NCBI RefSeq assembly: GCF_964204645.1
Contig: NC_134025.1
Coordinates: 23,974,299-24,038,298 of the forward strand
Direction of reading: 5' to 3'
DNA from: Tubulanus polymorphus
Taxonomy: Eukaryota; Animalia; Nemertea
Length of the DNA stretch: 64,000 bases
Under the pieces are notes generated by a model. The model saw only the letters and a list, made by a program, of their open reading frames with translations. It was not told the DNA's origin and made no database searches. This document shows, piece by piece, positions 7,037 through 61,300 of this stretch. How positions within the stretch are numbered: the first letter of the stretch is position 1; every line of letters begins with the position of its first letter. The position numbers were made by a program, and so were the translations under genes.

Positions 7037-10000
7037 TCATCGATTAGTAAACTGAGATGAAACCCATGCCAGACCCCATTTCAAATTCGTCAGCACAAAT
7101 TTCAACGCTTTAGTCCACTGTTCCTCGGAATTGAATTGAATCCTGAAATGACGAAAACATATTTTGACATTCCCGCATTTTATTTTTGATGAAAATGTAC
7201 CTATTTAGGCAATAAAATCAACAGTAATAGAAATAGAAACAATCGAGATGATGACAGGGCTCCAACAGATCAGTCAATCATAGATATAAGGAGTTTTTAA
7301 GGAGTTTTAAAGGAGAAAATGTCAATTTTTGAGGAAGCATCTGCATCACTTTCAAATCCCAATTACAGTCTCTTTCGAAATCTGTACTAAAAAAGTAGAT
7401 ACCTTGCTTCTCATCTCGGCTGTGCTTAAAAGTTGACCCGGACAGCTGCCTGTATACATTACTTTTTTAAAATCATGATCGAGCTAACAATAACAGACCT
7501 GGCAGCTATTGAAATGAACTGATAACAAATTTCATCGAAGTTTACAAAGTGACCTGGCCGATTAGGAGAAACGAGGTATCATTTTATTTTAGCCTTATCA
7601 TGATAAACCATTATTTCGGTTTTGTATGCAAATTCCTATCATTTCTTATTCGGTAACTGCCTAATTTGGTAACAAATCCTGGTCCTAGCTGTATCAATTA
7701 AGGCTTACCGGTAAGTCTATTTACTTCACAGCTTCTAAAATTTCTAATTGGCTATTTATAAAAAGTTTTGAAGGAGTTTTAAAGGAGTTTCAAGCACCTT
7801 TGAAAATAGTTTTCTGGTATTATGCTCAAAGTAATCGAGTTTCAAGCACCATTAAGAGCAGTTTCAAGCACCTTTAGAAGGAGGAGGGACCCTGAATGAG
7901 CACTATCCACCTACTTTATGGAATATGAAGTACCAGTACTGGGATCTTCAATTCGTCCTTTCTCCATTTTATACGGCAAACAAAATCCGGAGTCTCCTTT
8001 TTCAACTTCTTCTTTAAACTGATAAGGGAAAATAATGATTTATTGTTAATGAACTATTCAAAATACTTTAATCGCTTCTATAATTACTGGTCACCGGTAC
8101 AGTGATAATTAGGAAGAATTTCCTCATTAGAATACACACCTGTTGCAAGCAATCCAAGAATGCAACCATCGCTTGATCAAATCTGAAAGATCAATTCCAT
8201 ACTCTTATAAATCAGGTGGGAATTAATTTTATTTTTGATATTGCCATCTCTGAAATTAAAAACTTACTTAGTATCCCAAAAAAATCTTATTCCTCCAGAT
8301 CCATACAGCGGAAGCTCTTTTGATTTATCAGTCAGGGATTCAAGAAATGAATGGCTACCATAAGGCACTAGTCTATACCTAAATAAACAAAGTATTATTC
8401 TTTATACACCAACAAAAATATAACAAAAAAACATTGCTAGCCACTAGTCTCTCGATCTATGTTCCCGTCTGACTTAAAACATTTTTTTACTGTTGCATAC
8501 CTCTGAAATGTTAAGTTCATTTTCTTTGCTAGTGAGTGCAACAATAACACAGTCTGTCCCCAAGCAGCATTGATTTCATTCCAGTCAACCTACATCATAT
8601 GAAAATAAAATATCAGAAAAACCTATACCCGGTTTTTTGATTATTGAATAAAGATGATTGGAATGAACATTTACTGGATTATTCGGCAGTCGACCGAGTC
8701 GGAAATTATTGATTGTTCCAAAGTGACCACTGTGCCTAAAAGATCAATTAGATGATTGAAATTAGCTCTTATGCGAAAACACCTGTTGCAAAATGATAAA
8801 TTGTCATAAGCATAGGTTCAATGGTATGTAGAAATACTTACCAAATATGGAATGTTGCATTGAACACATTAGTTTTCTTCAGTTTATCAAGTTGAGCCTG
8901 GGCGTACTTTAACTGGTTATCAACACTGTAATATCATATAAATAGGTAGATGTTGTATATTGTCACTGCTTGAAATTGAAACAATTCATAAAAGGATATT
9001 GTACGTACCTTCTCTGACTGTCCTCGTGCTCAAGCAGTTGTCTTTTATATTCATTATATTCCTTCCAATAACTATAAAAGAAACATTGACCAGTTCACAG
9101 AACAATAATTCTTTAATAACCAAATTTGAATAACTGAATTTAGTCACCAAAGTAACTTTGGTGGAATTCAATCTGTCATTGGAATACCTCGCTTCATCCT
9201 CATCAAGTTTCCGAGCCTCCTCTTTCTCCTGTCTCAACTGATCGGCGAGATGTTGCCGTTCTGATTCAATGCTTTGAAGTTGTTCCAACAATGCCGACTC
9301 TTCAGCACGTAACTATAAAATAAATTAATTAATGATGTTCTTTATAGAGACAACAGAGAAAATCAACAAGTGGATGTGTTAAAATACCTGTCCGAGTTCA
9401 GAATCAAGCGCTTTCTCATCGACAGTTATTTCGCTGCTCTCACCTAGTTTCTCTAGAAAATCTCTGAAATAGCATTCAATACTTCCTATAAGTGTCAAAA
9501 CAAACTACTCATGATGTCTGAATGTTCAGAACAAGCATAACCTACCTGTAATCTTTGCCCTCTTCTTCAGTTATCATCAATTGTTGATCAAGTTGCTCAA
9601 GAAGATTATCAGTGCACTCCTATGAAACAAGAACAGAAGAGTCAAATATTCTAAGGAAGTAATGACATATCAGAATGGCATTGAGCAGCAAACGCTGGTA
9701 TACACTGTATTCTACAATGTAATCATACCTCACACAGTGGATGATCTATTTCGGACTGTCCGGACATAATATCAAACAGATAACTGTTCACCTATGATGG
9801 AATGAGAATAAAAAATAGAATCGTGAAATTCACCATGTCTACTGAAGATGAAGCAAAACTGTAGGCTACATACCTTCAGTCTATGGCTCAAATTCTCCAT
9901 ATTACCAGAATCTGACTCTCCAAGCAATGTAAAATCATTGCCACTGTCAACCGATACTAATCTGCAAGATATTTTGATGCACGAATGTACACTACTTTTG

Positions 10001-10812
10001 CATATAATGCTATAAATCATTACATCTATCTCATAGCCTTGTTCATATGATTATAAAAGTCCAAACCCACCGAAGAGGTTTAATGATTTTTCTTGATACA
10101 TCATCACCACCAATAGCTTCAGACTGAAACAATCAAAACATACAAAAAACCATCCATGGATAGAACTTCATTGAAAAGATGAATGATGTTTGCTGTTTTC
10201 TATTCTGACTCAGTGAAAAAAAAATCGACGTACCGATGACGGTTCTTTGAAAATCATAAGAGGCTCCTCAGAATCCACTTGTGTTGTCAAAGGTGCTGAA
10301 AATTGATTTTTTGTATGGTCAACTACCGGTAAGTATAACGTAGACCTATCAAAATCATAGGATAGACCCGTTTTTCCACACCACTGACACCCTCTAGGAA
10401 TGGTGTAGCCTACTTAGGGTTGTGATGTGGGAACCTCGTGTCTGATCACCTCTTTAATCATATTGGTTTACAATGGAGGTTGCCAGATCTTTGAGTACCG
10501 CACTGTGGATGCATATTGTCCCATTTTTCAAAACAGATATGATTTAAATCGATTTATTAACACCGTGATGCAATCGTTGATGAGAAAAGTGACTGCAAAT
10601 CATGAGGAAAATGTTTCAAAAAATGTTTCATTCTGACAATATCTCTTAATGAATAAGCTTATTGTCCACTATTTACCTGTAAATTCATTGAAGACCTGTT
10701 TGTCAATGCTGTTGAACGAGTGATCTAGTTTAAGAGGCTGGTTACATCGCTGACAAGAGAAGCTGACCTGCGTGGAGCCAGCCTTTCCATTATCAGGTCG
10801 TGTATTAGCCAT
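7037..10812 (-). CDS. BECN1: Beclin 1 (Atg6/Vps30), complete multi-exon CDS
   Basis: Spliced motifs [34 protein letters not shown] (BH3 region), [19 protein letters not shown], coiled coil, [40 protein letters not shown]-terminal [27 protein letters not shown]. Confidence 0.96.
7255..7894. mobile_element. Non-autonomous TIR element in last BECN1 intron (CAGGG...CCCTG termini)
   Basis: Starts CAGGGCTCC, ends GGGACCCTG; flanks GATGA/AATGA (degenerate 5-bp TSD); internal repeats of AGTTTCAAGCACC, also present at about 20893. Confidence 0.55.
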
Positions 10813-14400: not shown

Positions 14401-16411
14401 CATTAATAGGCATTGATTAGTAACGTTATCTGTTAGATAATTGATAGCATGCTATACGTGATGTGCCGTCAGTAAGAAATCTGTGTATGGTAATTACGGT
14501 ATTCGTTTTGCGGGGCGAGTTTCATTGATCTGTCTTGATGAAGTATTATCTCTTAATGTTTTTCTAGATACCACTCGAGCACCGAGACCCGGTGAAAAAG
14601 AAGATGTAGGTACGTTAATTAACATGTGTTCTTCGTGCTTGACAAAAAAAAACCAAATACGCAGATTCCCTACGACTACTTATTCCTTTAAAATTCCTTC
14701 TAAATGGAAAATGCTTTTCAAGGTGTTTGAAACTCATTTGATTTGAGCAAAATGCCCAAGACTCCTTTAAAACTTCTTCAATTTTGAGAAATAGGCAATT
14801 TGAAATGTTTGTAGTTGTACAATAAACTATATCTGAAATGATACAGTTGGACCTAGGATTTTTTTTTTACTCAATTAGGTGGTTACCCAATTAGAAACTG
14901 ACTTAAGGTAGTGTGTTAGATAGAAATTTGCTTACAAAGCCACCGGATTAACGGTTTAACGAGATAAACAGTACCAATTTAGGAGGAATTTACTCTAATT
15001 GATAATTTCAAAATGACCTGTATATGATACTGTAATCATTCAGTGTATGAAATGTTGTGAATATGTAATTAATCTTTGTTTCATCACTATTATCTTTAGA
15101 TTATCATTATGTTAAAAGAGAATATATGGAAGCTGCCATTGAGAAAGGAGAGTTCATAGAACATGCTGAATTTTCAGGGAATATGTATGGAACTAGGTAT
15201 TAAATATTGTAGACAGTTATATACCGTATGTACATTCTCCAGTTCTCTCATTTTATCGGGCTGATGAGTTTTCTTAAATTTCTCTTCAGCAAAAAAGCGG
15301 TAGAAGATGTAGCCGCAACTGGTCAAATATGTATATTAGATATAGATATGCAAGGTGTAAAAAATATAAAAAAGACTGATCTAAATCCATTGTATGTATT
15401 CGTGAAGCCTCCAAGTATGGAGAAATTGGTAAGGATTTTCGCTGTTGAATTTATTATCTGAAAATACCCACTAACTCGAATTTACTCGAAATGTATACGG
15501 TAAGGTTATTAACTTTCAAACTCTGGTGGCGATGTGACTTACCCTTTGAAAATCAATATATTTACTATGGCTAGTACTGCAATTAGTACATATCCTAATG
15601 AGGTTTGTGGAATTACTGGTATTATGTATAAGTCGATAGGCTATAGAACAGTAAGCTAACAAGTTCCTCACATGTATCAATCGATAGAACACTATTTACA
15701 CACTGTTGTACTATACTGAGATATATCATTGAATACATCATGTGTTAATGATCGATTTTACTCTGCTGCCAGATTGTAATAAGATCAAGTTTAATTTCTA
15801 CCAGGCTCTAATTACTAGAATGATGCCATATGTCTTGTCTGGCCCAGATTTTTCCTTATCAGATAAGATTCTTGTGTTTTGTTTTGATAAATTTTTCTAA
15901 CAAAATATTGAGTTATTCCTAGAATATTTGAGCTATATTTACTTGTACTAATGGTAGTTCATGTCATTACTCCTTTATAGGAGGAAAGATTGCGTGGCAG
16001 AGGTACAGAATCAGAAGATGCGATACAACTAAGATTATCTAGTGCCAAATCAGAATTAGCTTATTGTAGGTATCAATGAAACATGGCTTCCTTGAAAAAA
16101 GTTTGTCTTACATATGTTTCTATGGTATGCACTGTTCATTTGTACAGCTGAAGAAGTGGGATCATATGACCATATCATCATAAATGACAATCTAGATGAA
16201 GCATTTACTAAACTTGTAGACATCCTAAGACCAGTAAGTATCATATCATGTACCTATATTGGATCCAATAGATGAATTTGAAAAAATGATATTCCAAAAT
16301 ATAGAATAGAAACCTGGTTTGCAATATATGAGAAAACATTTCAGGCAGTGAATGAACATTATTTTGTATTTTCAGTTGATGGATGAAATGATAAAAGCCA
16401 ATCATAATTAA
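11496..16411 (+). CDS. GUK1: Guanylate kinase; core starts at ATG 14249, putative long isoform from ATG 11496
   Basis: [19 protein letters not shown] (P-loop), [77 protein letters not shown]. Exons 11496-11520, 14205-14360, 14568-14609, 15100-15196, 15290-15428, ~15981-16065, ~16148-16233, 16376-16411 (last exon less certain). Confidence 0.93.
12487..12499. promoter_or_regulatory. RFX X-box consensus match in GUK1 intron 1
   Basis: GTCGCCTAGCAAC fits GTNRCC-N0-3-RGYAAC exactly; function unproven. Confidence 0.4.
13804..13841. mobile_element. 38-bp palindromic mini-element with 7-bp target-site duplication
   Basis: CATAGACGTATAAACTAGATCTAGTTTATACGTCCATG is self-complementary except one pair; flanked by CTCAGAC on both sides (13797-13803, 13842-13848). 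Confidence 0.8.
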
Positions 16412-29200: not shown

Positions 29201-32200
29201 ATTCCAATTACGCATTTTCTTTCAATCAACATTTATAACTATGATATTTATTATGGCAGACTTTTGAATTAACCCTTTCAGTGCAGACTAATTAATACCC
29301 TATAGTGCTGGAGATAATTGGAATATTTTAAAAAATTCCACCCTAGTGTGTTGAATAATGGGAATACCACTATAGTGCGTCTACACTGCGACGCAGTGTA
29401 TCGTTAGTTACTGTTTGACAGGAGCTGCCATTTTTCAAGAGAGATAATTACTAATTACTAATTACATCAATACACCGCAGTGCGGTGTACTAGCAAAATC
29501 AATCACTGATTTATACACCGCACTGCGGTGTACACGCACTGAAAGGGTTAAGCGGGACAGATAATATATACGGTATGATGTCTACAACCATGGTTACTTA
29601 TTATATGTACCTGGAGGGAGTGGATGATTTTTTGGAAGAAGTTGTATCTGGATCATTATTTGATGCACGAGCCTCCAGTAGTAATTCATCTGCTGTCTTA
29701 TTGGCATTATTGAATAAATTATCAGTTCGTTGAGCAATTTCGAGCATCTCTTTACCACTTTTTTCTTTTTTCTCGAGTGATGAATCTTCTTTTTCTTTGA
29801 ATTTTTTCCTTCGTCGATAATTTTCATCATTTTGCCTCTCATGAGCCTCATGTGCTTCTCGCTCAAACCTTCTCTGTTCATCCTCGAAAAATGCAATAAC
29901 ATTACTGGTAAAGTAAGACAATGTAATGTAGATTGCATATTTCATCAGGAATAAAGATCAACGTAAGACAGATTATAAAATCACCAACACCTCAAGCAGC
30001 TCCAAGCAATTAAGATAAGTTAAAGAGTCCCCACACATTATGCTTACTTTAGCCAATGGGCTTATATCCCTGAAAGCAGGTTTATCCTGTTGCAGATAGG
30101 TCAAGAATTTCAATTGTTCTGAAAGCAAATGCATTACGAAATGAATATAATGAACCATAGCTATCAACTTACATGCTTTCTTTGAGCTGGAAAATATGCA
30201 AATTACATGTACATCCAAAATGAAGGTGTATATCCATCATTTTCTACTGAAACATGGAGATTCTTAATATCTAAAAAAAAACTGAAAATTACCTCTGAGA
30301 TATCTTTCCCAATCGTCCATAGTATTGATCTGTGGATCATCACCATGAAGTTTACCATCTTTGCGATATTGTTCTATAAATCGTCGGATCACTACTATAT
30401 CTTGATTTCGATCTTTATGTATCTGAGCTTTTCGTAATCGATGCAGTTCTTTAACAACCATTCTGGTGTATTCAAAATTTCGTACACTATCCTGCACACT
30501 TTTAGCTATCTTACTCTTTCCAGAATGTGGGTTCCTTGGAGATTTCAAATTTGTAACATCATCTGAATGTTTAAGAGATGTTTTTGGCCGGCAGTTTTGA
30601 GGTTCAGGTTTTGCAGATCTTGGTGTCTTAGAACTGCGAACAGGTCGCAGTGCTTTCTGTTTTTCTTTAGTATCTTGCTGTGGATCTTTCTTGTAAAGAT
30701 GCTCAACACAAGCTTCGGGAGCAGCCTCGGCCTTTATATTAAGTCCCTCCTCTTCTTCTTGATCATCACTAACAGCTTCAATTTTCAAATCATTCGCTTC
30801 AATCACCTCTTCTTTCTCCTGGATTTCTTCAGGCTGATCTTTTTCAGAATATTTTGAGGACTTTCCATCATTTTCTAAGTCTTCATCACAGTCATCATCA
30901 TCATCATCATAAATATCATCTTTATCGCTACATCTCAAATCATTTTCTGCTGTCACTCTCGCCATCTGAGATTCATCATCAGTAATTTTCATATCTTTGT
31001 CATCAACATCCTGATTTGTTTGATTTTCTTGTTCCTCATCTTTTTCGACAAATTTACTAGTCTTTACTTCATCTTTATCATTTTTGCTGAAGCTATTATC
31101 AGCATCACTACTTCGCTGATCCTGATCAGATGCAGACTGTTGTTCACTTTCACTTGAATCTTCCTTTAGTTTGGGCTTCGCATCGTCATTCAAAATATCA
31201 CTTTCTGGCTCAGATTCCTGAGTGCTTTCAATTACTAAACCTGGCTGACTCTGATGGCATTCTTTTCCACTTTCACCCATGTCAATGGTTTTTCTATTTA
31301 CAGGTTTGTCCTCAATGAACTCTATTTCATAATCAGCTTCACATTTGTCAGCATTAATCTCTGCCTCAATCACATTTTCTCCTTTATCTAGTACCTCCAT
31401 AGAATTTCTATGAGAATTTTTCCGACTCTCTTTATTTCTATGGACTTTACGCAGATTCCTTTGTATTGTTTTTGCAGCATTACCAGTTACTTTTTGTCCA
31501 GTTGCGGCACCATGAGATTTCAGATATTCTGCACATTCCATATTCCCCTTTAATACTGCTGTATCATATGGTGTAAAGTATTCATTCTGAAATCAAAATA
31601 ATCAAATCAGCTGCTTCCCCGGCAAATGAACTAGAAAAAGGGATCTTTTACTTAAAACTTCAATATGTAAAATCTGCATATCATGATTCTCAATGATGTA
31701 GCATATGCTTGTTTGGGGATCAATTGAACAAAGAAAAGAAGAAAAATTCAACTAAGAAATTTTCACTTCAACAAGACATGATATAACAACGTAAAGGCAA
31801 AGTTTCCGATGTACATGAAATCTTAATTGACAATATGTACTGATCAAATTACATGCAGAACAAAACTAACATTATCATAACCTAGAAAATGATCAATATG
31901 AATCATAAAAGGTCAATTAAGGCTGTCATAAATCAATATTGTTTGATAATAGTAATGCTTATTGTGTTAACAGAATACTCCTCGACTCCCAATATCAAAT
32001 ATCCATATTTAGAAGTACCAGTAATCAGATGTCTAGTTAAGTTTCTGGGTCATATTTATATCCATTTTCATTGCATGGATTATAAAACGGAACTCACTTT
32101 TGATTTACTTTTCATGATGGCATTTATATTGGCTCCATTATCCAGGAGAAGTTTGATGAGTTCCAAATGATTCGTCATTGCGGCAACATGTAAACACGTG

Positions 32201-35200
32201 CGACCATCAGTATTCCCAGAACTCAGAACCTTTAGACCTTTATTGCCGGTTTTTTTCTTAGCGTCTTCTATCAGAAAGTTTACTGCATCTAAAAATGATA
32301 TTTGTGTTAACTAACTAAACAGTGTCTCGAGAATCTCCTTTTCATCAATCGCTCAAACAATATCGCTATAATTCATCATTCGTTATTTACCAGTGTGTCC
32401 TGCTTGTGCGCCTTCGTGTAAAGGATACTCTCCTCGATTGTTTTTCAACCACAGATTTGCATTCTTTTCTTCGAGTAGAGTCAGGCACGATACTAAGCCT
32501 TTAGCTGCAGCACAGTGGGCTGGACTAAATAAGAAAATTTGAATAATCTTAGATGGATACCGTGCATTGCGAACGGTGTTGAATAGGTTTATTACTTTTC
32601 CTATATTTCGCCGCCGCAAAACTCATTAAACAAAACAAATAACCGCCAGTCAGCATTTGTTGTCGTAGACATAAAACAACTGTTAATCGATTCCCCAAGA
32701 GATTTAAAACAGAGACAAGGTACACTTTGACATTATGCTATAAAGAACCACAAACCCATATTATCAACGTTCATGGCATCTCATTTTCCTTAGACAAATT
32801 AATATTGATAATGAATGATTAACTTTGTGAACATGGGTCATCCTGTCAAATTTTCATCTAGTTTTCATCTCGCTTTTCATTTTCAGGGCCCAGTAGTTTT
32901 GACTAAAGATGAAACAGGATCGATAGATAGGGCTGTAATAACCAACACAGCTAAGAGTGACATACCTTCTTCCCTTTTTATCTCGAAAACTGGGATTCGC
33001 GCCGAGTTCCAATAAACAAGATGTGCATTTCTCATGGTTCAACGTGATCGCATAAAAAAGCGGCGAACATTCATTCTTGTCTTTACAATCGATGGTAGCT
33101 TTATGTTCGACGAGTGTTTGAATACATTCCGGGTGTCCTCGACTAGCGGCACAGTGCAACGCTGTGAAAATAACAAACATATAATACAACGACTAAAAAT
33201 TTACCACATATTGGCAGACAGCATTCCATTCACGACTAGTAGTGACATCGTAAAATGAGACAAGGGTATTTGTTGTCGTAATGAAATTCAAGATTATTAA
33301 TGTGTGAACTAAAGAAAGTTTTAACTGATTACACATTTCCACCACCCAGTTAACAAAAGCGTTAAACAAATGACATGAAAAATTCATATATCTGCTGAAA
33401 ACTTGAAATACGGCTTTGTGGAAATATTCTCAAGCTAGTTTCGAAATGAGATGGACATATACCTGTGAGGCCATCTTTGTCAGCAGATTCCACCTTGGCT
33501 CCAGCATTGATCAATGCAAGACACGCATCACTACTACCTAGAATTGAGTAAGGTTAGATTCAAGTTTAGATTCGAACGAAGACATTAAAAAAAGTGTCCA
33601 TAGTAACATTACCTGCACTTGCGGCCCATAGTAATGGTTGTCGCTTGTCGTGGTCAGTCACATCAACGGGGATGCCTTTTGACAGTAATTTCTGTAATAT
33701 TTTCATGCCAACGCCAGGCTCCATTCCCTCAGCGTTCATGCCAGCCATTTGGGCGGCATAGTGAATAGGGTAAGCATCATGTATATCAGGTGTTGATAAA
33801 ACTGCTGATTTTCCCATTATGATATCGAGCAGTTTTATTTGGCCACAAACTGAAATCACGAGAACCATATCGTAAGTAACGGTAAAGTTTTAAACGAATG
33901 AATTTTTACCATTAACAATTACTAGTGCTTGAAATCCAGTTTTTAGGGCAGCCCTCCAAACCCTCTGTTTGATTGAATTCTTCTTAATTTCTAGATTCAA
34001 TATCAGACCCAGTCATCAAATTAGGCCTATAGCGTTTCTCAATTACATAGCCGAAACATCGATACCGGTACAGTCAGGGACTAGCGTAATTGATTCTGGC
34101 TCATTAGTGTGTGCTTGATAAACCTACTATCTCAAGAGCCCAGTCACACAAATCTCTTACCAGTGGCCCAATGAACGACCGTGTGTTTCTCATTATCCGT
34201 ACTATTGATATTTGCTCCTCGGTCGATCAGTAACTGCAATAATGCCGCGTTACCGGTGATCACAGATAAATGCAAACAACTATATCCATCTTTGTCCTGA
34301 GCGTTCAGAATTGATGAATCGTAGTCCAAAATCGCTGTTGCGCATCTAGTTTGTTTATTCTCTACGCAGTGATGAAGGGCTGTCTTACCGCTTCGATCAA
34401 CAGCCGTGATATCTCCCTAAAATGCAGAGAAAACTCCAATTTCTTTTTGTTTTCTTTTTCAGTTCAACTTGTGACTATTCATCAAATGCTATTTGAATTG
34501 TACACAGTTTTGGGATGATGGCCAATATAAAGCCATTTAAAATTTAAATTTGCTAGTGGGTAGAAGTCTATTCATCCCATAGAATTCAGAATATAGCATA
34601 AACACGTTTAGTTTAAACAGTTTAAATCAATCTCCCATCCCACTACAAGGAACACTAGCATGCTTTTTAGAATACTCACTCGTTTCTCTAAGAGGCTGTT
34701 TACATTGGTAATGTTTTCCGCTTGACAAGCCAACATAAGAGCCGTGCAGCCTGATTCATTGATCGATTCTGATGACATTTTATCTTCCGCCAACAATAAC
34801 TGCAAATATGAACTATTTACGTGCGACGCCGCTCGTTTGAATACTGTTTTACCACCGCCATCTTTAATATCTGCTTTAGCGCTGTGCCTGAAAATATTCA
34901 ACAATAAAACGTTGAAGGGAATTAACATATACCATTACCTTCCCTTATTTTCAGCAACTATCGTCAATTCATAAGCCCAAAATATTCTTTCTCTTTAGAA
35001 TGTAATTGTACTATTTTCAGGTTTTAAGTAAGGTTTTTTGGACATGATTTTTGATGTCAAAAACTTGACTTATACACCTGAGAATACGGTAGCCTCATAT
35101 TGTTTCATCGAAAATGACTAGAGACATTATTTGTTTTGGAGAAATTAATCTATGAACTTCTAGAGTAGACCTGCAGCTTATGCAAAGTTTACTGTATATG

Positions 35201-41200: not shown

Positions 41201-41764
41201 ATTATTATTTCAAAATTCCTAAGTTTTTCCCAATTTCCTTGTTCTGTGGGAACCATGACATTACAGCCTCAAAATCTGCAGTACTGTGTCATTTCAAATG
41301 ACAGTGAAGCTGGACACCAGTTTACTTACCCAATCAGCATCAACTTCACAAATACAGTTTATGGCGCCAATATTATCATTGTTCATGGCAAAGATCAAGC
41401 AGTTGTACCCGTCTTCATCTTGTATTTCTAAATCCGCACCGCTGTGTATGAATAATGATAACAGCGAAGCATTTTCGTAAAATACGGCCCAATGTACGGC
41501 TGTCCGTCTTTTTTGATCTTGTAAATCTAAATCAACGCCATGTTGCAACAACAATTCACAAACTTTTTCATGGTCTATACCGGTGTCTTCATTTTTCTTA
41601 TATTTTCTAGCTCCTTGCACGGCATGAATGAGAGCGGTGGCCTTATCCCTCGAGCGACAATTGATCTTGAAGTTAACTGACCGGGAATGTCTCGTTAAGA
41701 AATCCTTCAATTCTTCCCATTTGCCGGAAAAGGCGAGTTTCAGCAATTGTTTCGATACATCCAT
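26294..41764 (-). CDS. Inversin-like ankyrin-repeat protein with IQ-like motif and long acidic/low-complexity tail
   Basis: Many ankyrin repeats over successive exons (RTAVHWAV, RTALHIAI, GCTALMLAC, GYSCLHLSV, HTVVHWAT, YPIHYAA, QPLLWAAS, TALHCAAS, EYPLHEGA, RTCLHVAA), then AAKTIQRNLRK, an acidic 1.3-kb exon, and a terminal exon 26294-26499 in matching phase. 3' exon structure less certain. Confidence 0.85.
29273..29547. mobile_element. piggyBac-type MITE (275 bp)
   Basis: TTAA|CCCTTTCAGTGC ... GCACTGAAAGGG|TTAA: perfect 12-bp TIR, CCC/GGG ends, TTAA TSD; three internal 19-bp hairpin palindromes. Confidence 0.9.
37676..37870. mobile_element. MITE with GGGCCA.TTG TIRs containing a nested CAT...CATG mini-element (37704-37763)
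   Basis: Left GGGCCAATTGTTGAAGAG versus reverse complement of right end GGGCCAGTTGCTCAAAAG; nested insert with CTAGTTTATA repeats flanked by GTTAGAG/ATTAGAG. Confidence 0.6.
39784..40044. mobile_element. MITE with CAGGG..AGAT.TAGG TIRs
   Basis: CAGGGTCAGATTTAGG ... CCTAGATCTGTCCCTG; flanks CATTT/CATTC. Confidence 0.6.
40944..41257. mobile_element. MITE with 14-bp TIR and ACATTA TSD in intron 1 of the ankyrin gene
   Basis: ACATTA|CATGGTTTCCACAG ... CTGTGGGAACCATG|ACATTA. Confidence 0.8.
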
Positions 41765-41900
41765 GAGTGAACACAGTGTTAAAAGGCACGAATGGTTTCA
41801 CATGACAAATCACCGACAACGCCGACACGCCGGCCTTAACAACAACAAAACAATCGAAAAATGCCATGCTGTCAGATCCATGCATGATTTACTACGGGAG

Positions 41901-42330: not shown

Positions 42331-43212
42331 ATGTTCCACTTGACTGAGTGGTCATCCAGTTCGACTATTGTATATAAAGCATATCTTGAAAACATAACGT
42401 CCATGCACTCAACCCAGAACTGGTGCACAAGTCTCCACTCACTTCTGGAATGCCTCGACCTCTCAGGTGTTTGGTGCAATCAAGGGTCAAACCATCCAAA
42501 AAAGATAATTAATCTACTGCAGTCTAAAATAAAAGCTCTTTATTCTTCCATTTGGCTCAAAGAAATTATGACTCAAACAAAAACCCAAAACTCCGATCCT
42601 ACAAACTATTTAAATCACGCTTCATTATAGAAAATTATATTGTTGCCAACAACTTCACAAATCGCCGCGAATTCTCCAAATTACGCCTTGGGTCCCATCA
42701 TCTCCGTATTGAAACTGGACGACATCACAAACCTCCAATACCGGTTCCCGATAGGATCTGTCAATTTTGCTCAGATCAATCTGTTGACGATGAACTGCAT
42801 TTTCTGATCAACTGTTCATACTCCGACAGTGCCAGGTCTGATATTTTCACGTATTTGGACACTTTTACCGATTTCAGGACCATGTCTCACATTGATAAAT
42901 TCGCCTTTCTGATGTCTTACAATAACAACGATCCCGAAATTTCCACAATTGTTTGCGATTTGGTCAATAAACTGGTCAAGCTAAGACTCGACTCCATTTC
43001 ATAGTAATTCCTCAGCTTTGCGACTGAGGGCGCTTTTCTAATTATTTCTTGTATAAGTTCTTGTTTTTTGATTATGCTACTATGTATTATGTATTCTCTA
43101 TTTAATGTCATTCTTTAATGTTTTGTCCTGTAAATTTATTGCATGTCTTATCCTATGTATAAATGTTATATACGGCGCAATAAATATAAGTTCAAGTTCA
43201 AGTTCAAGGTCA
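42331..43212 (+). mobile_element. 5'-truncated, frameshifted non-LTR retrotransposon (LINE; RTE-X/CR1-like ORF2 C-terminus)
   Basis: KLRSYKLFK..ENYI..KLRLGSHHLRIETGRH...RICQFC..VDDELHFLINC (C-terminal CCHC-type motif); two overlapping ORFs indicate a frameshift near 42560; T-rich 3'UTR, AATAAA at 43179, then (AGTTCA)3 tandem tail. Confidence 0.85.
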
Positions 43213-50400: not shown

Positions 50401-53400
50401 GGGCGGTTATGCGACGTATGCGTACGGCTGTATTATCGCGATTATGGAAAGTCGCTTGAACTTCAAAATGTTTGCACGTTATGCAACTGTTTTGCTCCAG
50501 GGGTTAATGGTTCAGATTTGGATTGCGAAAAGGTATAATAGCGAATTCCTTCTAAAACTCATTCACATGACAAAATTTTCAAAGTCTGTTTTTTTTTTTC
50601 ATTTCTACACATAGATTGGAGGCCAGTGTAGGTGTAAAGAAAATGTGGATCAGCGCCAATGTGACAAATGTAGAAATGGATTCTACAATTTACAAGCGTC
50701 TAAACCTTTAGGGTGTGATGCATGTGGCTGTCATGCACCAGGGACTATAAATGGAGATATATCCTGTCATGCTACTTCTGGACAATGTAATTGCAAAGCT
50801 AATGTCAGAGGTAAAATATCTTTTTAGATCCCTGTTTAGTCGTAGAATCTGAAACAAACTTCTTCCTTCCAACTTTCTTTATTACTGTACATGTAATGTT
50901 CATTTATGTTTGTATATATGATGTCTGATTCAGATCGACAGTGCAGTAGGTGCCAGTATGAATACTACAATCTTACTGAAATTAATCCTGATGGCTGTTC
51001 TCCGTGCGAATGCAACCCTTCGGGCTCGATGAATAGAAATTGTGATCCGTCGAATGGAAAATGCTTTTGTAAAGACCGAATCACTGGTCGCCAGTGTGAC
51101 CAATGCAAAGATGGCTTCTACAACTTCGCAAACGGTTGTTTGCCCTGCGGATGTGATACGAGTGGGTCTGTAGACAATGTTTGCGACAAAAAGACAGGAA
51201 TGTGCCGATGTAAGATAAACGTCGAAGGTTTGAAATGTGACCGATGTAAAGACACTTTCTACAATTTGAAAGCGACGAATCAGAATGGCTGCGATGCGTG
51301 TGGTTGTAACATAAATGGGACGATGAATAGTTCATTAGTTTGCGACAAGATGAACGGTTCATGTTCCTGTATGCAAAATGTTCAAGGGAGAACTTGTAAT
51401 CAGTGTAAAGGAAATACTTGGGGTCTAGGAATGAACAGTACTGTTGGATGTTCGCCGTGCGATTGCGATCCGTCGGGAACATTCCAGGGTGATCAAGTGG
51501 CTCCGTATCAACTTGCTTGTGATCAGAATAACGGACAGTGCGCCTGTCTCAGTAACAGAATCAATAGACGTTGTGACTCATGTGCAGTCAGTAAGTCTTT
51601 ATTCATTCATTTTTAATGTTTTTGGTTTTCAAAATCATGTTGAATTTCACATAAATGTACATGTGCATTTTGCTCTTAGGCCATTATAAGTTGGATTATA
51701 GATTTGATGGACTGTGATTGGAGAGGGGACAATTTTTCAAGATATTGAATTCATTACTAATTTAGTGATTGGAGAGGGGAATTTGAAAAGAAAAAATTTA
51801 GAATTCATGTGGAGGTGTTTTTGGAAAATGATACCGATATATTGCCTATTTTTTGCCTACACATAGCTGATGCCGCCATTTTTGTAAGTCACACAATTTA
51901 CTGAATGAACCCGACAAATATATTTTATTTGAGGGGTGCCGGGAAAAAAACTCATAGGCCTACCTAAAAACCAGAAATGTTTGTTGCAGATCCGTAATCC
52001 AACTTATAAAAAAAAAACAATCTTTTCTATTGCTATTTAATCTCTACTTGTTTAGATCATTATGTGTTGAACCAGCCGGGTCAGGGCTGTCAGCCGTGTA
52101 ACTGTGGACGTACTGGTGGTTCCTACATAAATGTTCCGTGTGATCCGAAAACGGGCCAATGTAGCTGTATCGCTGGGAGTGGACTGACAGGTCGCACATG
52201 CGATATCTGTGATAAAGAATACTACAGATTTGATTATAATGAGTAAGTTATAAACATATTTCATGTTTTCAGTTAGACTATATATATATATGTATGTGTG
52301 AGAGTGTGCACATTCGTTGAGTGAATTTGCATATCATTTGTATTTATATTGGCAACTATGCATATCTATAACCACAATCAATTTCGAAGTCATATATTAG
52401 TTATAGCTCTTGACATGGTCCATGATTTTGCTTGAGTTCTGAAGATATTGGTTTCTGTATCTGTTACAATCATCAAAATCAATCAATTGTTGTTAGATTG
52501 TCGATGTTGATGAGTATATTGGTACTTTTCCCGTCCCTGACTATAAGTTGGTCTTAGTAAACTTCTTAGTAGAAATAATGACTTTATTCTTGTTCCAATA
52601 TTTTGATATCATGAAATATTCTATTGACGCCACTCTAATTCTTTAAGATGTAGGAAGTGTAACTGTGATATGGCTGGAAGTGTTAACAAGACTTGTGAAA
52701 GAACTGATGGTCAGTGTCAGTGTAAACCATTTGTTTCTGGATTGAAATGTTCTGTATGCGTAGAAGGATCGAGTAATTTGGATGCTAACAACCCATATGG
52801 CTGTAGCAAGGGTAAGTGGTGATTTGGAAAATATGTGAAGAAGCTGATGGGATAATGTGAATGTTTTGCTTCCATTTATTTACTGTTGTGTGGAGATGTT
52901 ATTGTATCTTTTATGTATTATACTGAGTGGCTTGCACTAATTTTTCAAAGATTTTATGAAATTTTGAGACCAATCTAAACCGATCTGTTTCCAGCCCCCG
53001 ATCAGCAGCCTCCTCCGACATATGCCCATGTTAGTCCCACCCAGCTGCGTATTATGTGGGGCCCACCGGACAATAAAAATGGAGTCATCATTAAATACGC
53101 GTTGATGAGAAATGATAAGGAGATATATGTTTCAAGTATCAATGATACATCTCAAGCCAATACAATTGGTAAGTTGAAAAATCGTCATATAAACAGATAA
53201 GCATTTGTTCTCGGAATTCATTGAAGTCGAACCATTCAAATCATTAGTTTACATGTACAGGTATGTATAAAAAACATTGTTAGCTATGATTCTCTTTTGT
53301 AGTTCGATCTTATTTGGATACTGGTCTCGAACCATTTACTCAGTACTCGTACTTTGTAACGGCTTGGAATGTGAATGGAAGTGTGAGCAGCCCTACTGTA

Positions 53401-56400
53401 GTGGTCGAAACGCTCCCAGGACAGCCAAGCGGAGTATTCTTGCTGAACCTGACACGGATAATGCAAACGTCGGCCTCATTTGAATGGGCGCCGCCTTCAA
53501 AACCGAATGGATACCTCATCGGCTATACGCTTTATGGACGAGAGCAAGGAAAAACTGTTGCTTCGTCAATGTTATCGACAAACGATACAACTGCAACAGT
53601 CACTAATCTTGTGCCATTCATGAACTATACATTTGTTCTAGAAGCGTGCACTCATGGGGGTTGCTATAACAGCACACCAACGCAGGGTTTGACTCTCGGA
53701 GCTGCACCAGTGGGTCAGTCAGCTCCAAATATTACGGCTTTCAATAGTACTACGTTGTTTCTAAAATGGGGCCCACCAACGGAACCGAACGGTAATAATC
53801 CTTTAGTATCAAATGTAAAATATTAGCAAATCTATTTTAAATTCCTCATTGCTGAATCAATTTTTATATACATTCATATATAATGGAGGATGGCCTCGTT
53901 TCAGGGATTATCATCTTTTATGAATTATGGAAAAAGGACACCGCTACTGGAACTGCAGAACTGATATTTCATCCAGCTGGCCAATATAACCCACGTCCAT
54001 CAACCACCGATGAAAATGCGTTGCCGCCTCCGGCTACGAATTACACGGTGACTGGATTGAAACCATTCACCGAGTATCACTTCCAGATCCTTTCTCAGAA
54101 TGATAATGGCAAGGCTGCGAGTCCTTGGGTGACAGGGAGAACAGGAGAGGCCTGTAAGTTAGATACCTATAGACACAGTAATATTTATTAAGCAACCAAT
54201 CATCACTCGACTTATATGATACACTTTACAAAGTTAACAAAAAAGCATTATTTGACATACATTCTTTCAATTCTGATTTCCATGGCTGTTTGAATATGTT
54301 ATGTCAAAAATTCATAAAGACTATATCTATTTTTGGTATGGTTTTTATTGCAGCATTACATACACATTGTTGTCTTTTCTTTCATTTCAGTACCATTTTA
54401 CATGCCCATTCCAACCTCAATAGGCATCGATAGCTCGTCCTTACAGATCATATGGACTGCCCCATCAATAGCACAAGCAAATGGTATCATATTACATTTC
54501 AAACTGTTGGAATTTGTACCCAATAATAAAACTATAGATCCTTTCGGTAAAGATATCATTGAAAAGGTAAGAAGATTCCTTTGAATTTTGCATTAGGATT
54601 CATTCGGAATACCGCATTGTGCTTAACATGTATATGTGTTGTTCATATTTTCAAGCTTATCGCAACTGTGCCTGCTAATGTCACCAAGTATGAGGTTACT
54701 GGCTATAAGCCTTATAGCGTTCACAAATTCAAAGTCGATGCATGCAACTCAGTAGGTTGCGTGAGCAGTGCTGATTTTACTGGCCAGACCTTCCCATCGG
54801 GTAAGTGACCGGTGAAGAATGAAGTAATGATGAAATGAAATGTAAATGCAATTTGATTCTCATATTTTGCTCAATCATGTTTTCAGCCCCATCGGCTGTG
54901 ATGAAACCAGTTGCTACCGGTTATAATTACTCGACAATGCAGATCAATTGGCATCCGCCTTCAGTTCTGAATGGACCCGACCCATACTATCTAGTTGAAC
55001 GCATGACGATACCTTTTTCAAGTCCTCCACCAGCGGTGGTTCCCGGTACCAGATTTACCGGCGGAGGTTACTATCATTTCCCGAGAACAGTCCTTCCATT
55101 TGATGTCAGTTTCACTGGTAAGGCGCTCAACAGTATCTGCTTTTCATTGAATTTTTGATCAAATTACGTGAATGATTACGTGCAACATTTTGAAATCTAG
55201 GAATTCGCATGAAGTTTCGCACGACTGCTCAAAACGCGGCGCTTTTTTATGCATCCACTCAGCAACAAGATGAATTCGTCGTGATTCAGATACGCGACGG
55301 ACGAGTTTGGTTTCTATTCAATCCTCAAGGTAAGAACAAATCCAGTTTGTTTTGTAGATTTTCACCAGTAATCAAATGATATGATATGATATATGTGGTC
55401 ACATCATTTATACATTAAGAATAACACAAGTCGCGCCCGTCTTTAGTCAATCCAAGCGTTGAAGTAGTACCAAAAATCATGAAAATTAGAGAAAACAGAC
55501 TTACCTTTTTACATCATTTGCAGTATTTTTATTTCGATCACTGTCACCGAACACTTTTTGAATCATTCAGAGGCTTTTTATTTTTAGGTATCCGTATTTT
55601 CAGAAATCATTATCACAGAGATGTGTACATTGGCTTGTTTGTTTGATACGGTACTAATGAAGTGGTCACATATTTTGGTTTAAATCTTGCCTAAAAAACT
55701 AGCCTATCTCTGTTACAGGATTTTTTGAAATCATGATTTCGTTTTCATCAATTCATGAAAAATGAAAATATACTATTTATTTACTAAATGCATGAGAGCT
55801 ATAAAAAAGGCTAGAATACTTACGTTGAATACTGTTTGATTTAAGTTTAGAGGTATTGATTGTTCTGGGAACCTGACAGCAAAGACTTACTAACACATTT
55901 AACTAAGAAATGAATATTAGTAGAAAATTTGAATGTGAAGTGTTGCACCATATTTGTCATGTTAGGATGCAACACTGAAGTTGAGATTGATCCTGCAATT
56001 GATGGCAACAGAACATACTCTGACGGGCAATGGCACTCTGTCCAAGTATATCGGAAAGACTTTGATGGCCAGTTGATAGTTGATGATTTAAAAGGTTAGG
56101 CAATGAATGATGATGATCATGACGATTTCAACTAGAAAACCTTGAATTGCCATCATCTATATTCAATGCACCTGTTCTGATGTTGCTGTTCAACACTTGA
56201 TTGTGTGTGGTCGTGTGGTATACTGGACTGATTAGACTAGATTTGCCGCTTATGCCGCGCTTCGCTGTGATAGAAAAACGTTTTGCCGGTACATGATCGA
56301 TCTCTGCAAGAAGCAAAAACTTTGAAAATTTCGGAAAATCCGAATGAGAAATTGAAATTGATTTGACCGCTACCCAGCTTCTGTCGAGATCTCATGAAAG

Positions 56401-58287
56401 CCGCTGTTCGCTTGCTAAGTTGCCTTGTCTGGACCCAATTGCACAGTCATTGCATCTTGCTCATTTTGTTTCTAAGTTCCAATGGGAATTTAATAAAACT
56501 ATGGACTTCTGAGCTCATGACTTTGCAACTCGGCCCAAAGCGTTACTGATGTACTAGTACATGGTTAAGATTTTATTTCGCAATTTCGTTTCCGTAGATG
56601 TATATTCGTTTGATTTCAATCTCACCATTTTCTATACCCTAACAGTAGTTCAATTACACACCAAACTTTTCGTTCATAACATTTCTTCAGTAGGATTGAA
56701 GTTATGGTTTGTTTTATCACTTATTGATGAAGCCTTTAAGTTTCCTTGGTTTTGTTGAGATAGGTCATGATCGATTTTCAGTGCAAAACGACCGTACTGA
56801 AATGGAACGTGAATTTAATTATTGATTATAAACATAAATGCTTTAATCAAACTTTTAAATTCCAAATTTATTGACATTAAGATATGCTTCCCTATTAGAT
56901 ATTACTTTATTTGCGTTTGGGGACGCCTGCTGCGGAGGACTTTTAACACAAAAAATGTCTTGTTTATTGTCACCAAAAAAACAGGATGTGTTTCGTATCT
57001 TTCAATAACAAATGATGAGGGATCACCCCACAATAGTAACCAGTGGTTAGAACTAGAGGCTCGACGTAGTGGGAAACATGGAATAATTTATATGAACAAT
57101 TTCAATGGTATGATTTTTACAAGTGTCTAGGAACGTTTATGTGAAAAACCTTTTATTCCTCAGTTTTCTCCAACCTCATTGTACTAATATGAATCCAATA
57201 TTTTTGATATTCACCTCATTTTGCAAACTATTTAGTTTGCGCATCAATTAATCAAAAACTAATAACAAATTGTGTATGGATGTAATTTAAACTAGTTTCA
57301 AAATATGGTGCTTGTAATTAAAATACACATCGATGTCTATTTATGATTATATTTGTTTTTCATATTGAACTAACCACTGAAAGAATGATACATCTAATGC
57401 TGTTGTATGTACTGGTACATTTGTACTAGTTCCCTATGGCGGCCAGTGCTGGGAACTTGCTATTACTAACTAACTGCTTAAATATTGCGCATACTCTATC
57501 TATAATATCTATGCTTGCTTAGTGGAAATTTCCTTGATTTCATCGATTTCCTTGGAAACAAGATATATTTCCACTATTTGTACCTGCGTTCTTGAGTGTC
57601 ATATCTTATGGTCTAGCCGAATAAGTATGATTCGATTCTTTTGCCCGATGATCGGCTCTTAATTTTTCTCTGAAGTGACTACCATTAAGACTGAGTATAT
57701 GTTTGGGCTACTCAATCAGAATTCATGTAAGTTTAAGGACATAATATTTGTTTTTATCTATTTACCAATGATAATGATGGGCATTAATAGAGTCACTAGA
57801 TGAATGAAGCTAGACCATAAGAATAATACAGAACTTTACCTACTCAATTGGTTTCTAATTATGTTATGTCATGTTTCCTGACCAGGATGCGTTACCTTCA
57901 TCTCAACCACTGATGATGAAGGTTTACCTTATTCTGACAATGAATGGCACGATCTGTTTGCCTATCGAGATGGCAAATATGGTATCCTTAGACTAGATGA
58001 TCTTTGGACAGGTTTGAACATTTGATTCGGTTTGTCTAATCAATAGAATATAATATGCATATATGTGCGTCCGAAAGAGATCACCTCGGCTTCAAAAATT
58101 TCAATTTTACTGATAGAAATATATCATTCGAGTACTCCCTCTGAAAAGCCAGGCTGGACTCTCTGCAAGATCCTTTGCCTTGACCCACTTGTACTTTTGT
58201 GTGCGTGTGTGAGCAGTCTATCTTTGCACTTAAACGAAGCTTATGCAAAATCATTTCAGAGAAAAAAATATATAACATGTATATATC

Positions 58288-58321
<34 letters not shown>

Positions 58322-61300
58322 TGACAACGGAAGATATGATTTTGTATGAAGTTAGCACATCATATATATTTTGACACCGGTGGTATTGGCGTTAATACAT
58401 GTACATTCATTATTCATTTGTTTTGGTGATGGTTCTATTAAAAGGTTGGTGGTTCTATTCATTGTATATATGAAACCTATATGCAAACAATTAATCTGTT
58501 AATCAGCATAATGTATAATAATGTATTGATCCTTTCGTTCACATGTAATTTGATGGAAATGTCCATAAGACTTTGTTGTATCATTTCCCTTTTAACTTCG
58601 ATTCTTTGCGAAAAATATGAATATCCTTAAAGTAAACAACTGATTTTCATGCACATTTTGTCCATATAATTTTAACATTTTTTGAGAATGGATCGACTTT
58701 CTTCATTTAGGTACAAAAAATCTTTCTTGTACGAAGGGGAATCTTATCGGTGAAAGTACTGGTGTTTTTGTTGGTGGTATTCCAAATACTGTGGAATTAA
58801 AGCAAGACGCAAAGGACCGAAGAGCTCAGGTATTTATCATTCGAAATTCCGTGTTAACTGATACGAAAGTTCCGTGCCATTCATTGAAAAATTGAATTGT
58901 TTATATTCTGCTTTATTCAGATAATTAAAGATAGCTTTCACGGTTGCATCAAAGATATACAAATTCTTCAGCAAGAATCTCCGGTAAACGTGTGGAGAAC
59001 GCTAGACTGGAATTTAGCGATTGATCGAAGGCAGGCGATGCCTGCTTGGGAAGGCTGTCCCGGTATCATGAACATTTCTGCCGTACACTTTCTAGGAACA
59101 GGTAACCTGTCAAGGTATTTTTGGTGATTGTTAATTTTTTTCCTGACGGATACTGTAAGTCTTATTCATCTCTCTTCAATTTCAGGATATTTAACGATTG
59201 ACGTCGAGGCTTTTTCGCTAACTAATAAAAACTTTGTTTTGCGATGGCAAATTCGAACTACGCTTCACTCGTTTTTTGTTTTGTTTATGCATGGAGGTGA
59301 TGACCGGTTTCTTTATCTGCAAGTTAGACAGGGCGCAATGGAGTTTACTGCACGTGGTATCAACACGCCGTCACTGGAAAGTACCAGTCAAATCATTCAG
59401 CGGACGATCACGTGGAACAATTCAGCCGTCAACATCTGCGATGGTTACTGGCATACATTAGAAATCTTCAAATCTGGAGGCCAACTTAGAGCATCTGTCG
59501 ATGGCAAACATGAAGTGGCTGAAGGCAATCCGTCTGACTCCTTTCGGTTTGATATCAAGTCGAATATCTATGTTGGTGCAATCGATGAAAATGATGCTCT
59601 AATGCAAAGCTATCTGAAGAGGAATAATCTAATAGACAAATTCATGCCGCGTAAGTCATGTTAACCAATTATTGCTCATGAATTTCACTATGTAATGGCT
59701 ATTACTAATCAGAAAATTCGAAGAAAAACTCACATTTATCACGATACAAAATAGCTCATTTCCTGTTGATTTTCATGAATTACATGTTATTTTGTAGTAG
59801 ATAGTCAAGGCTTTCACATAGTATAAGATTTGATGAGATGGGCCGCCAAAATTGTGACCTTCTGACCCCCAAAATTCATCCTGACTTACTTAGATGGAGT
59901 GTTCAGTTTTGTCATGTTCATACCAAAAATACTCGAGAATTTCAAATAGAAAGATGTTGATTTCTGTACAGAATATTGATGCTTGGGTGTCTAGTTTACC
60001 TTAAACTAATGGGTTTGAATCCCACCGTAATCATTTTTGCTTAACACACAAAAAAATAGTCAGGGCGGATTTGGGCGGCTTGAGGAGTAATACTCAGGGC
60101 GGATTCGGACAGCTCGACGGCTAATAGGTTTATCTGTTAAGAAAACCTAGGTTAGGGCATATCAATATATTTGTCTAAAATCAGTTAATCTTGCTTTTAC
60201 CAGCTTTCGGCGGATGCATAAAAGACATGTTCTTGCGAAAGCCGTGGAATTTTGAGAGAATCGCTGCCATGCGAGATGTGAACATGGATGGTTGTCCTCT
60301 AGAATCTGTATTCAATCCCATTGGTTCATGCGAAAATTCCGTCAAAGTTCAAATAAGTAATACGACCAATAATCAGTCATTTGATTATGGACTTCCTGCA
60401 TTTTCAGGTAAGTGGTTTTACATCAAGAACACCGGAACTTGGAATTCTTGATATTTTTACCCTGTTCATTGAACGTCAATTAGATCATCTCTATACATCC
60501 ACTGATGTTTTTTATCTTGTATTTTCAGCATATAACTATCGGGTTGTTGCTAGAAATGCTGGAGGAGTATCATATAGTCCATGGACAAGTGGTCGAACGA
60601 AAGAAGGAGGTAAGTTCGTGTCAACAATTAGTTTATGTTTTTAGCTAAATAGTCCATTTTATGCAAACTTCATAAGATTGAATTCAAACCTTGTTTCCTT
60701 TTTGTAGCTCCTAGTGGCGTTTTTGCACCCGTATCAGCAATCTCGAAAACTGGCTACGTTGTTGCTGTTGAATGGAAACCCCCGGTTCGAAAGTCAGGAC
60801 TGCTCGCGTCCTATATTCTCAAGTCTTACAATAAAATCAATACATCAATTCCTGCGATTGAAACCGTATTTAAGAATACAGAAATCACGAAAGGGGATAT
60901 AACCAATGCTATTCCTGCTACTAATTACACAATAACTTTAACTGCTTGTACAAATGGTGGATGTACCGAAAGTGATCAAGGAATTGATGTACAAACAAAG
61001 ACTGAAGGTATATTGCTATAATCCTTGAATTTGGATTTTAGAATAGAGATTCCTGTTTTTATCTTCTCTGATGCATTTTTGTAGCCCCCGAAGATGTCCC
61101 AGCTCCTAGAGCGATCGTCGGCCCAACTTTTATGGAAGTTGTTTGGGATAAACCTGGAAAGCCAAATGGAGATATCATTGGCTACTTCTTATATAAAGAT
61201 AATGTTGAAGAATATGCTGGTACCATGCAGAAAAAAGTTCTAATTAATCTTCAGGTACTTATATATCTAAGTAGTGCATTGATCATCATCATCAAAAGTG

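Follow-up and report, generated by a model that had tools for sequence, protein, structure and literature searches.

We analysed a 64,000-nucleotide (nt) stretch of the genome of Tubulanus polymorphus (Nemertea), NC_134025.1:23,974,299-24,038,298, here called the window, whose own numbering is used for all coordinates. It contains a usherin gene that continues beyond the window end at 64000, and within the exons for the first LamG domain of this gene (LamG1) three homologous exons, A, B and C, stand in tandem between two constitutive ones (Table 1). Judging from related species and from predicted folding, A and C are very likely used in a mutually exclusive way; that the cluster works three ways, with B also in use and one copy in each mRNA, we consider probable, if with less confidence. 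The likely outcome would be three forms of usherin, distinct from one another in about 42 residues of a single domain.

The assignment to usherin (the USH2A orthologue) is made from best matches and tree grouping. The constitutive exons, 632 amino acids (aa) in translation, have 28-38% identity to named usherins. In a quick tree of 26 rows they cluster with Owenia and the molluscs (Shimodaira-Hasegawa-like approximate likelihood ratio test, SH-aLRT, 99), outside the group of bivalves and gastropods, which places the animal in a lophotrochozoan lineage otherwise absent from the sampling. The domain order is FN3, two LamG and then a run of FN3, with an fn3 match at 53290-53790 and a LamG2 exon matched at E 2.1e-11; the downstream FN3 domains are read from translation only. 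As in vertebrate usherin, the translated part has a laminin N-terminal-like region, EGF-like repeats, FN3, two LamG and an FN3 run, and the motifs on either side of the LamG1 segment agree, but deuterostome usherin has this segment once and lacks both of the cysteines described below. A search for LamG2 homologues among proteins of 271-2000 aa found none in 242 candidates.

Table 1. Exons of the LamG1 cluster, the sequon codons and the candidate intron helices, in window numbering.
Feature	Position	Strand	Details
Upstream constitutive exon, first strands of LamG1, end ...LFNPQ-G, phase 1	55201..55329	+	PF02210 positions 1-35, E 4.7e-6
Alternative exon A, long-loop type, Gly-Cys start, DGQWH, N-glycosylation sequon	55966..56094	+	129 nt
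N-R-T sequon codons in exon A	56007..56015	+	8 residues before conserved Trp
Alternative exon B, likely a later C-type duplicate, degenerate motif NSNQWL, weak splice sites	56985..57107	+	123 nt
Alternative exon C, short-loop type (TTDDEGLPYSDNEWH)	57886..58011	+	126 nt
Downstream constitutive exon of LamG1	58711..58829	+	Cys codon 58728-58730
Candidate helix H1	56544..56562 with 57407..57425	+	would enclose B; 7/200 shuffles, 10/200 real segment pairs
Candidate helix H2	56681..56703 with 58097..58120	+	would enclose B and C; 7/200 shuffles, 9/200 real pairs
Candidate helix H3	57663..57678 with 58251..58266	+	would enclose C; 1/200 shuffles, 2/200 real pairs

A reading made earlier from the sequence alone had described A, B and C as tandem, homologous, stop-free exons of phase 1-1, and their coordinates, lengths, translations and boundaries were all reproduced here. 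Each is open, begins AG/GATG and ends G/GT (the slash marks the splice boundary), and the reading frame stays open for all eight inclusion combinations, from zero to three copies. No fourth copy was found in the 64-kb window. A contig from the DNA-like read set X1, which may itself be the source of the window, covers all three exons with seven substitutions relative to the window, none of them within the exons, and in read sets X2 and X3 exon and intron pieces are covered alike. The four cluster introns measure 636, 890, 778 and 699 nt in order from the upstream exon. The sequence-only reading had called them much longer than their neighbours, which holds against the 83-91 nt of five of the seven nearby introns, but the remaining two are 237 and 553 nt, so that the contrast in length is real but not unique.

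The same reading had all three copies encode one and the same LamG segment, and this was borne out by the matches of A (E 2.8e-5) and C (E 0.067) to positions 47-74 of Pfam PF02210 and by pair scores above those of shuffled sequences. Specifically, B and C are identical at 17 of 40 positions, A and C at 16 of 40, and A and B at 7 of 40; the corresponding BLOSUM scores are equalled by none of 2000 shuffles for the first two pairs and by 2 of 2000 for the third, so the homology exceeds chance. A profile of 61 usherin segments scores A at 48.1, C at 48.0 and B at 27.5 bits. Exon A is matched best by a segment of Owenia (19/39 identical) and exon C by one of Mercenaria (20/41). The sequences flanking the exons are no more alike than shuffles in five of six comparisons, and in the sixth, upstream of A and B, the score is equalled by 4 of 200.

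Alternative segments in related species and loci

Three lines of evidence lend good support to the view that A and C are used exclusively: models in two molluscs exchange one type for the other, nearly all proteins carry a single copy, and a two-copy sequence is predicted to fold with a low-confidence part. The RefSeq isoforms of Saccostrea cucullata, XP_062584554.1 (X1, 4994 aa) and XP_062584555.1 (X2, 4993 aa), both of them computed models, are identical over a prefix of 1396 residues and a suffix of 3555; their only difference is the swap of a 43-residue A-type segment for a 42-residue C-type one, and the ends of this swap coincide with the exon ends in the window. For Mizuhopecten, the RefSeq model XP_021347323.1 is A-type and the GenBank model OWF53397.1 is C-type; the two also differ at a few other places. 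Among 138 proteins that have both flanks, 136 carry one copy, the two-copy models being those of Pecten maximus and S. echinata.

Taking all models of the 18 named lophotrochozoan species together, eight species have A-type models only (Owenia, Argopecten, three Haliotis, Gigantopelta, Babylonia and Batillaria), six have C-type models only (Mercenaria, Mya, Ylistrum, Pinctada, Lottia and Candidula), and four have both (Saccostrea cucullata, Mizuhopecten, Pecten maximus and S. echinata). This suggests that a pair of mutually exclusive exons (MXEs) may explain the discordant usherin models of close molluscs, with annotation pipelines choosing A, C or both. No alternative LamG1 segment was found in any of 16 deuterostome species sets, each holding at least two models. 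In Batillaria attramentaria, two usherin models whose A-type LamG1 is near-identical (P0142 and P0144) lie on different scaffolds, which may reflect a gene duplication or an uncollapsed haplotype.

A metagenome scan adds 22 genomic loci (L001-L022), nine of which stop before the cluster (L004, L005, L010-L013, L015-L017). The 3' boundary of the upstream exon is identical to that of the window in L001, L006-L009, L014 and L018. Locus L007, bivalve-like by sequence, has the upstream exon, a long-loop copy, a C-type copy and the downstream exon in this order, and L018 likewise carries a pair, of which the second copy shows 51% identity to exon C of the window; all copies in these two loci are of phase 1-1. 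In L008 and L014 a long-loop copy comes first and the locus then ends, and in L009 the C-type copy comes first. The A/C pair is not universal, because in L001-L003, which are near-identical to one another, and in L006 the flanks enclose a single C-type copy. These single-copy stretches (L001:11744-13189, L006:7025-9733) give the appearance of a pair reduced to one exon in that lineage. In L019-L022 the LamG1 region is intronless, with a single copy and without the position of the lophotrochozoan cysteine pair (e.g., L020:1028-1756). The first copy has a much longer loop in L018 (1324-1509, 61 residues) and L014 (1590-1751, 53 residues), compared with 42; large insertions are thus tolerated at a single point of the long-loop exon, whereas the C type stays at 40-43 residues.

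The exchanged part of the LamG fold

An AlphaFold2 prediction for the one-copy oyster domain has a mean predicted local distance difference test (pLDDT) score of 92.7. In this 200-residue model, which was made on the oyster protein and not on that of the window, the exon corresponds to residues 71-113 and supplies the strands at 74-77, 93-101 and 104-109 as well as the start of that at 112-117; on this model, each of the copies codes for one and the same part of the LamG fold, a part that it cannot do without. The Foldseek neighbours of the domain are laminin alpha2 LG4-5 (E ~1e-12), pikachurin, perlecan, agrin and neurexin, and no solved usherin LamG structure is among the PDB matches. The two-copy sequence of S. 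echinata is also predicted to fold as one LamG, with a mean pLDDT of 83.7: about 175 of its 240 residues align to one solved LamG, while about 30 fall below 50, residues 81-110 lying near pLDDT 46.

The two types differ in the loop ahead of the conserved tryptophan. A sequon stands 8 or 9 residues before it in eight of nine non-bivalve A-type segments, including that of the window, and in none of the 7 bivalve-type A, 17 C-type and 11 deuterostome segments; the sequon played no part in the assignment of types. The distance from the exon start to the tryptophan is at least 21 residues in 16/16 A-type segments, 18-19 in 16/17 C-type and 19 in 11/11 deuterostome segments, a contrast that is partly a matter of how the types were defined. 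We predict that the A loop is longer and, outside the bivalves, likely N-glycosylated, and that the loop of B and C is short and bare. Of the 17 lophotrochozoan rows in the alignment, 16 have both a cysteine where the alternative exon begins and another in the downstream exon, whereas the remaining 17 rows have neither, a pattern from which we infer that the two would pair as a disulfide in all forms.

Exon B, co-inclusion and the age of the copies

Several observations weigh against one exon per mRNA from a cluster of three, and they are best taken with the alternatives that they favour. Beforehand we note that the three read sets contain no splice joints; these are DNA-like, none of them being recorded as RNA, and the absence has no bearing on expression.

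The uncertainty is largest for exon B. Its acceptor is the weakest, A-rich with 41% pyrimidine compared with 47-88% at nine constitutive sites, its donor matches the consensus at five of nine positions and is the weakest of the 12 sites compared, it has NSNQWL in place of DGxWH and has thereby lost the histidine, its profile scores are the lowest, and on its own it gives no Pfam LamG match. Moreover, three copies were found in no relative examined, and the candidate helix H1 would enclose B. All of this would fit a cluster in which A and C are mutually exclusive while B has recently fallen out of use and is now an early pseudo-exon, an outcome that we consider unlikely but worth keeping in mind. 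However, B keeps its frame, its splice dinucleotides and its starting cysteine, and it is unchanged in the read set X1 contig. The sequence-only reading had allowed that the other copies might be found evolving neutrally, and for B this is not what we find. Identity between B and C at the three codon positions is 0.53/0.72/0.30, with proportions of synonymous and nonsynonymous differences (pS and pN) of 0.86 and 0.37, and in simulations under a simple model without indels this codon pattern was matched by 0 of 14,000 runs with a neutral B (seven divergence levels) but by up to 183 of 2000 runs with a constrained B. Neutral evolution of B since its duplication is therefore rejected, and B has been under purifying selection over most of its history, with which a recent loss is still compatible. 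B is probably a minor form. For A and C, conservation in molluscs and Owenia indicates that both are selectively maintained. The earlier expectation of one exon per mRNA thus stands firmest for A against C, and is less certain for B.

A second alternative is that the copies are cassette exons, often included together, so that LamG1 would carry an extra segment looped out of the fold. The frame permits this in all eight combinations. The single models of Pecten maximus and S. echinata do carry A and then C joined, the join being clean in S. echinata and having about 30 extra residues between the copies in Pecten; unless they are prediction artefacts, these joins tell against strict exclusivity. 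The prediction of a single LamG for the two-copy sequence can also be read this way, and it is partly circular, with single-copy alignment rows gapped over the part of low confidence. On the other hand, each of the S. cucullata isoforms and both Mizuhopecten models carry one copy, as do 136 of the 138 proteins, and the core pattern is preserved in full in every copy, although a looped-out segment would have no need of it. We therefore regard frequent co-inclusion as quite improbable, and retain exclusive choice between A and C.

The ancestry of the copies was examined with profiles built without the window sequences, and the results depend on A and C types that had been assigned by eye, partly on loop length, before the profiles were built. 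In A-type and C-type bits respectively, exon A scores 57.6/16.7, exon C 30.8/56.9 and exon B 16.6/40.3, assigning A to the A type and both B and C to the C type with margins of 24-41 bits. A single clade of A, B and C is rejected by approximately unbiased (AU) tests, both on 35 rows (p 0.010) and on 44 rows (p 0.038). A recent lineage-specific triplication is rejected with it; the A/C pair is shared with the molluscs, and B is likely a later C-type copy. The C group has support of 93/70 in the 35-row tree and of 97/87 in the 44-row tree, where it includes the long-branched first copy of L018. Several aspects of these trees are less favourable. They rest on 43 columns and are hence weak, the A group forms no single clade in the 35-row tree and what remains of it in the 44-row tree is weakly supported (83/75), the L018 first copy groups with the C type, and by profile the first copies of L008 and L018 fall clearly to neither type.

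With these reservations, the copies are most simply explained by a single old duplication into A and C, together with losses in some lineages and a later copying of the C type that likely gave B. The A/C duplication appears to predate the split of the window lineage from the molluscs, and probably also the split from the annelids; annelids and molluscs separated more than 500 million years ago. The order with the long-loop copy first is common to the Pecten and S. echinata models and to loci such as L007. That the copies arose by separate duplications here and in molluscs, with convergence or tree noise behind the likeness of A and C and with splicing still exclusive, draws on the few columns, the L018 first copy, an oyster A+C clade that is not rejected (AU p 0.082) and the single-copy loci L001-L003 and L006, but the rejected window triplet, the profile margins and the shared loop length, sequon position and order of copies leave it with very little credence.

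Splice choice, known systems and surroundings

Since all eight combinations are open, exclusivity enforced by the reading frame is rejected. Steric clash is unlikely with introns of 778-890 nt, given a limit of less than 50 nt between donor and branch point (PMC5740500). The donors of A, B and C match the consensus at five or six of nine positions, whereas nine constitutive donors match at seven to nine. Exclusive choice most likely comes from weak competing splice sites steered by splicing factors, with helices between introns perhaps helping by looping out B and C. The helices themselves are a lead only. An energy-based duplex search found no intron pair out of six that beat its 12 shuffles, a result that counts against them, and the contiguous-helix score by which H1-H3 were found was chosen after that search, so that their p values of about 0.01-0.05 are post hoc. 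By this score the three pairs involving the first intron are at chance level. No docking site common to H1-H3 was seen, and no counterparts of them were found in L007 or L018; docker-selector MXEs of the Dscam or 14-3-3 type have one docker site, conserved among relatives, that pairs with a selector next to each exon. Both arms of H1 are near-palindromes; a 14-nt palindrome at 56549-56562 and a copy with one mismatch at 57407-57420 flank exon B, and the pair could be a repeated binding site or the remnant of an element rather than an RNA helix.

In L018, the three introns around the copies (701-2826) hold 12 GCATG sites compared with about 2 expected, some of them just before the first copy and just after the second. 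We take GCATG to be an RBFOX-type motif, in which case this enrichment would fit RBFOX-type control. The four cluster introns of the window have a single such site, at 55789, and RBFOX-type control was set aside as the mechanism there.

Mutually exclusive splicing is familiar from Dscam1, muscle myosin heavy chain and the IIIb/IIIc choice of FGFR2. The present cluster resembles such systems: its homologous exons adjoin, are alike in length and phase and code for one and the same part of a folded domain, and their ends lie in or beside secondary structure. MXE clusters are described as arising by tandem exon duplication, and spliceosome incompatibility, steric clash and frame as not explaining most of them (Hatje et al., 2017; PMC5740500). 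The gene is a different one here, 'USH2A' occurring nowhere in the main text of the article, and the usherin pair is apparently common to the window lineage and the molluscs, with a third copy here. The splicing class is known, and the cluster is more notable for its age and gene than for its mechanism; it would add an old MXE pair to a clade with few described.

Vertebrate usherin has a short inner-ear cassette exon, and its known isoforms stem from truncation or a cassette rather than from an exchange within LamG1. The portions of two articles that we consulted describe a long isoform B and a short isoform A of vertebrate USH2A (PMC10258241) and treat these long and short isoforms and therapeutic exon skipping, with no LamG1 swap among the subjects covered there (PMC10258241, PMC10018040). 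A closer parallel is splicing in the LNS/LamG domains of neurexin and agrin, which have the same fold as usherin LamG1; in neurexin, ligand binding is governed by which splice form of an LNS domain is made (PMC4183798). There the variation consists of optional inserts, whereas in the usherin of the window a fifth of the domain, core strands included, would be exchanged between copies. Literature passages on the topic name no ligand for LamG1 of usherin. No report of mutually exclusive usherin exons was found either, in literature coverage that excludes subscription journals, supplements and MXE databases; the swap is apparently unreported, though RefSeq already lists the two oyster isoforms, as models made automatically.

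Usherin is a deaf-blindness gene whose product has a huge ectodomain. That several lophotrochozoan lineages have retained two versions of one LamG1 segment points to a surface on which variation is of use, and the oyster isoforms, which differ in nothing but the swap, offer a ready comparison for binding and localisation. The sequence-only reading had suggested that the isoforms tune ligand binding in different sensory or ciliated cells, which is a guess. A bolder proposal along this line, which we rate as less likely than not, is that the A/C pair acts as a switch throughout the lophotrochozoans, in place since before the annelid-mollusc split, that the choice between a long glycosylated and a short bare loop sets the partner of usherin in different ciliated or sensory cells, and that B is a neofunctionalised third option. 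If so, it would mark a ligand-binding surface on LamG1 that is also relevant to vertebrate USH2A.

Upstream of usherin lie neighbours at 857-4183 (-), 8989-10050 (-), 15213-15458 (+), 30267-34934 (-), 41297-41797 (-) and 42528-43001 (+), which from their translations only we take to be a xanthine dehydrogenase-like, a beclin-like and a guanylate kinase-like gene, two ankyrin-repeat genes and a retrotransposon-like fragment. Within usherin, a high-copy repeat at 59740-60255 takes up the 553-nt intron that follows the LamG2 exon, its summed depth in read set X1 being 1,400-1,900 compared with 40.

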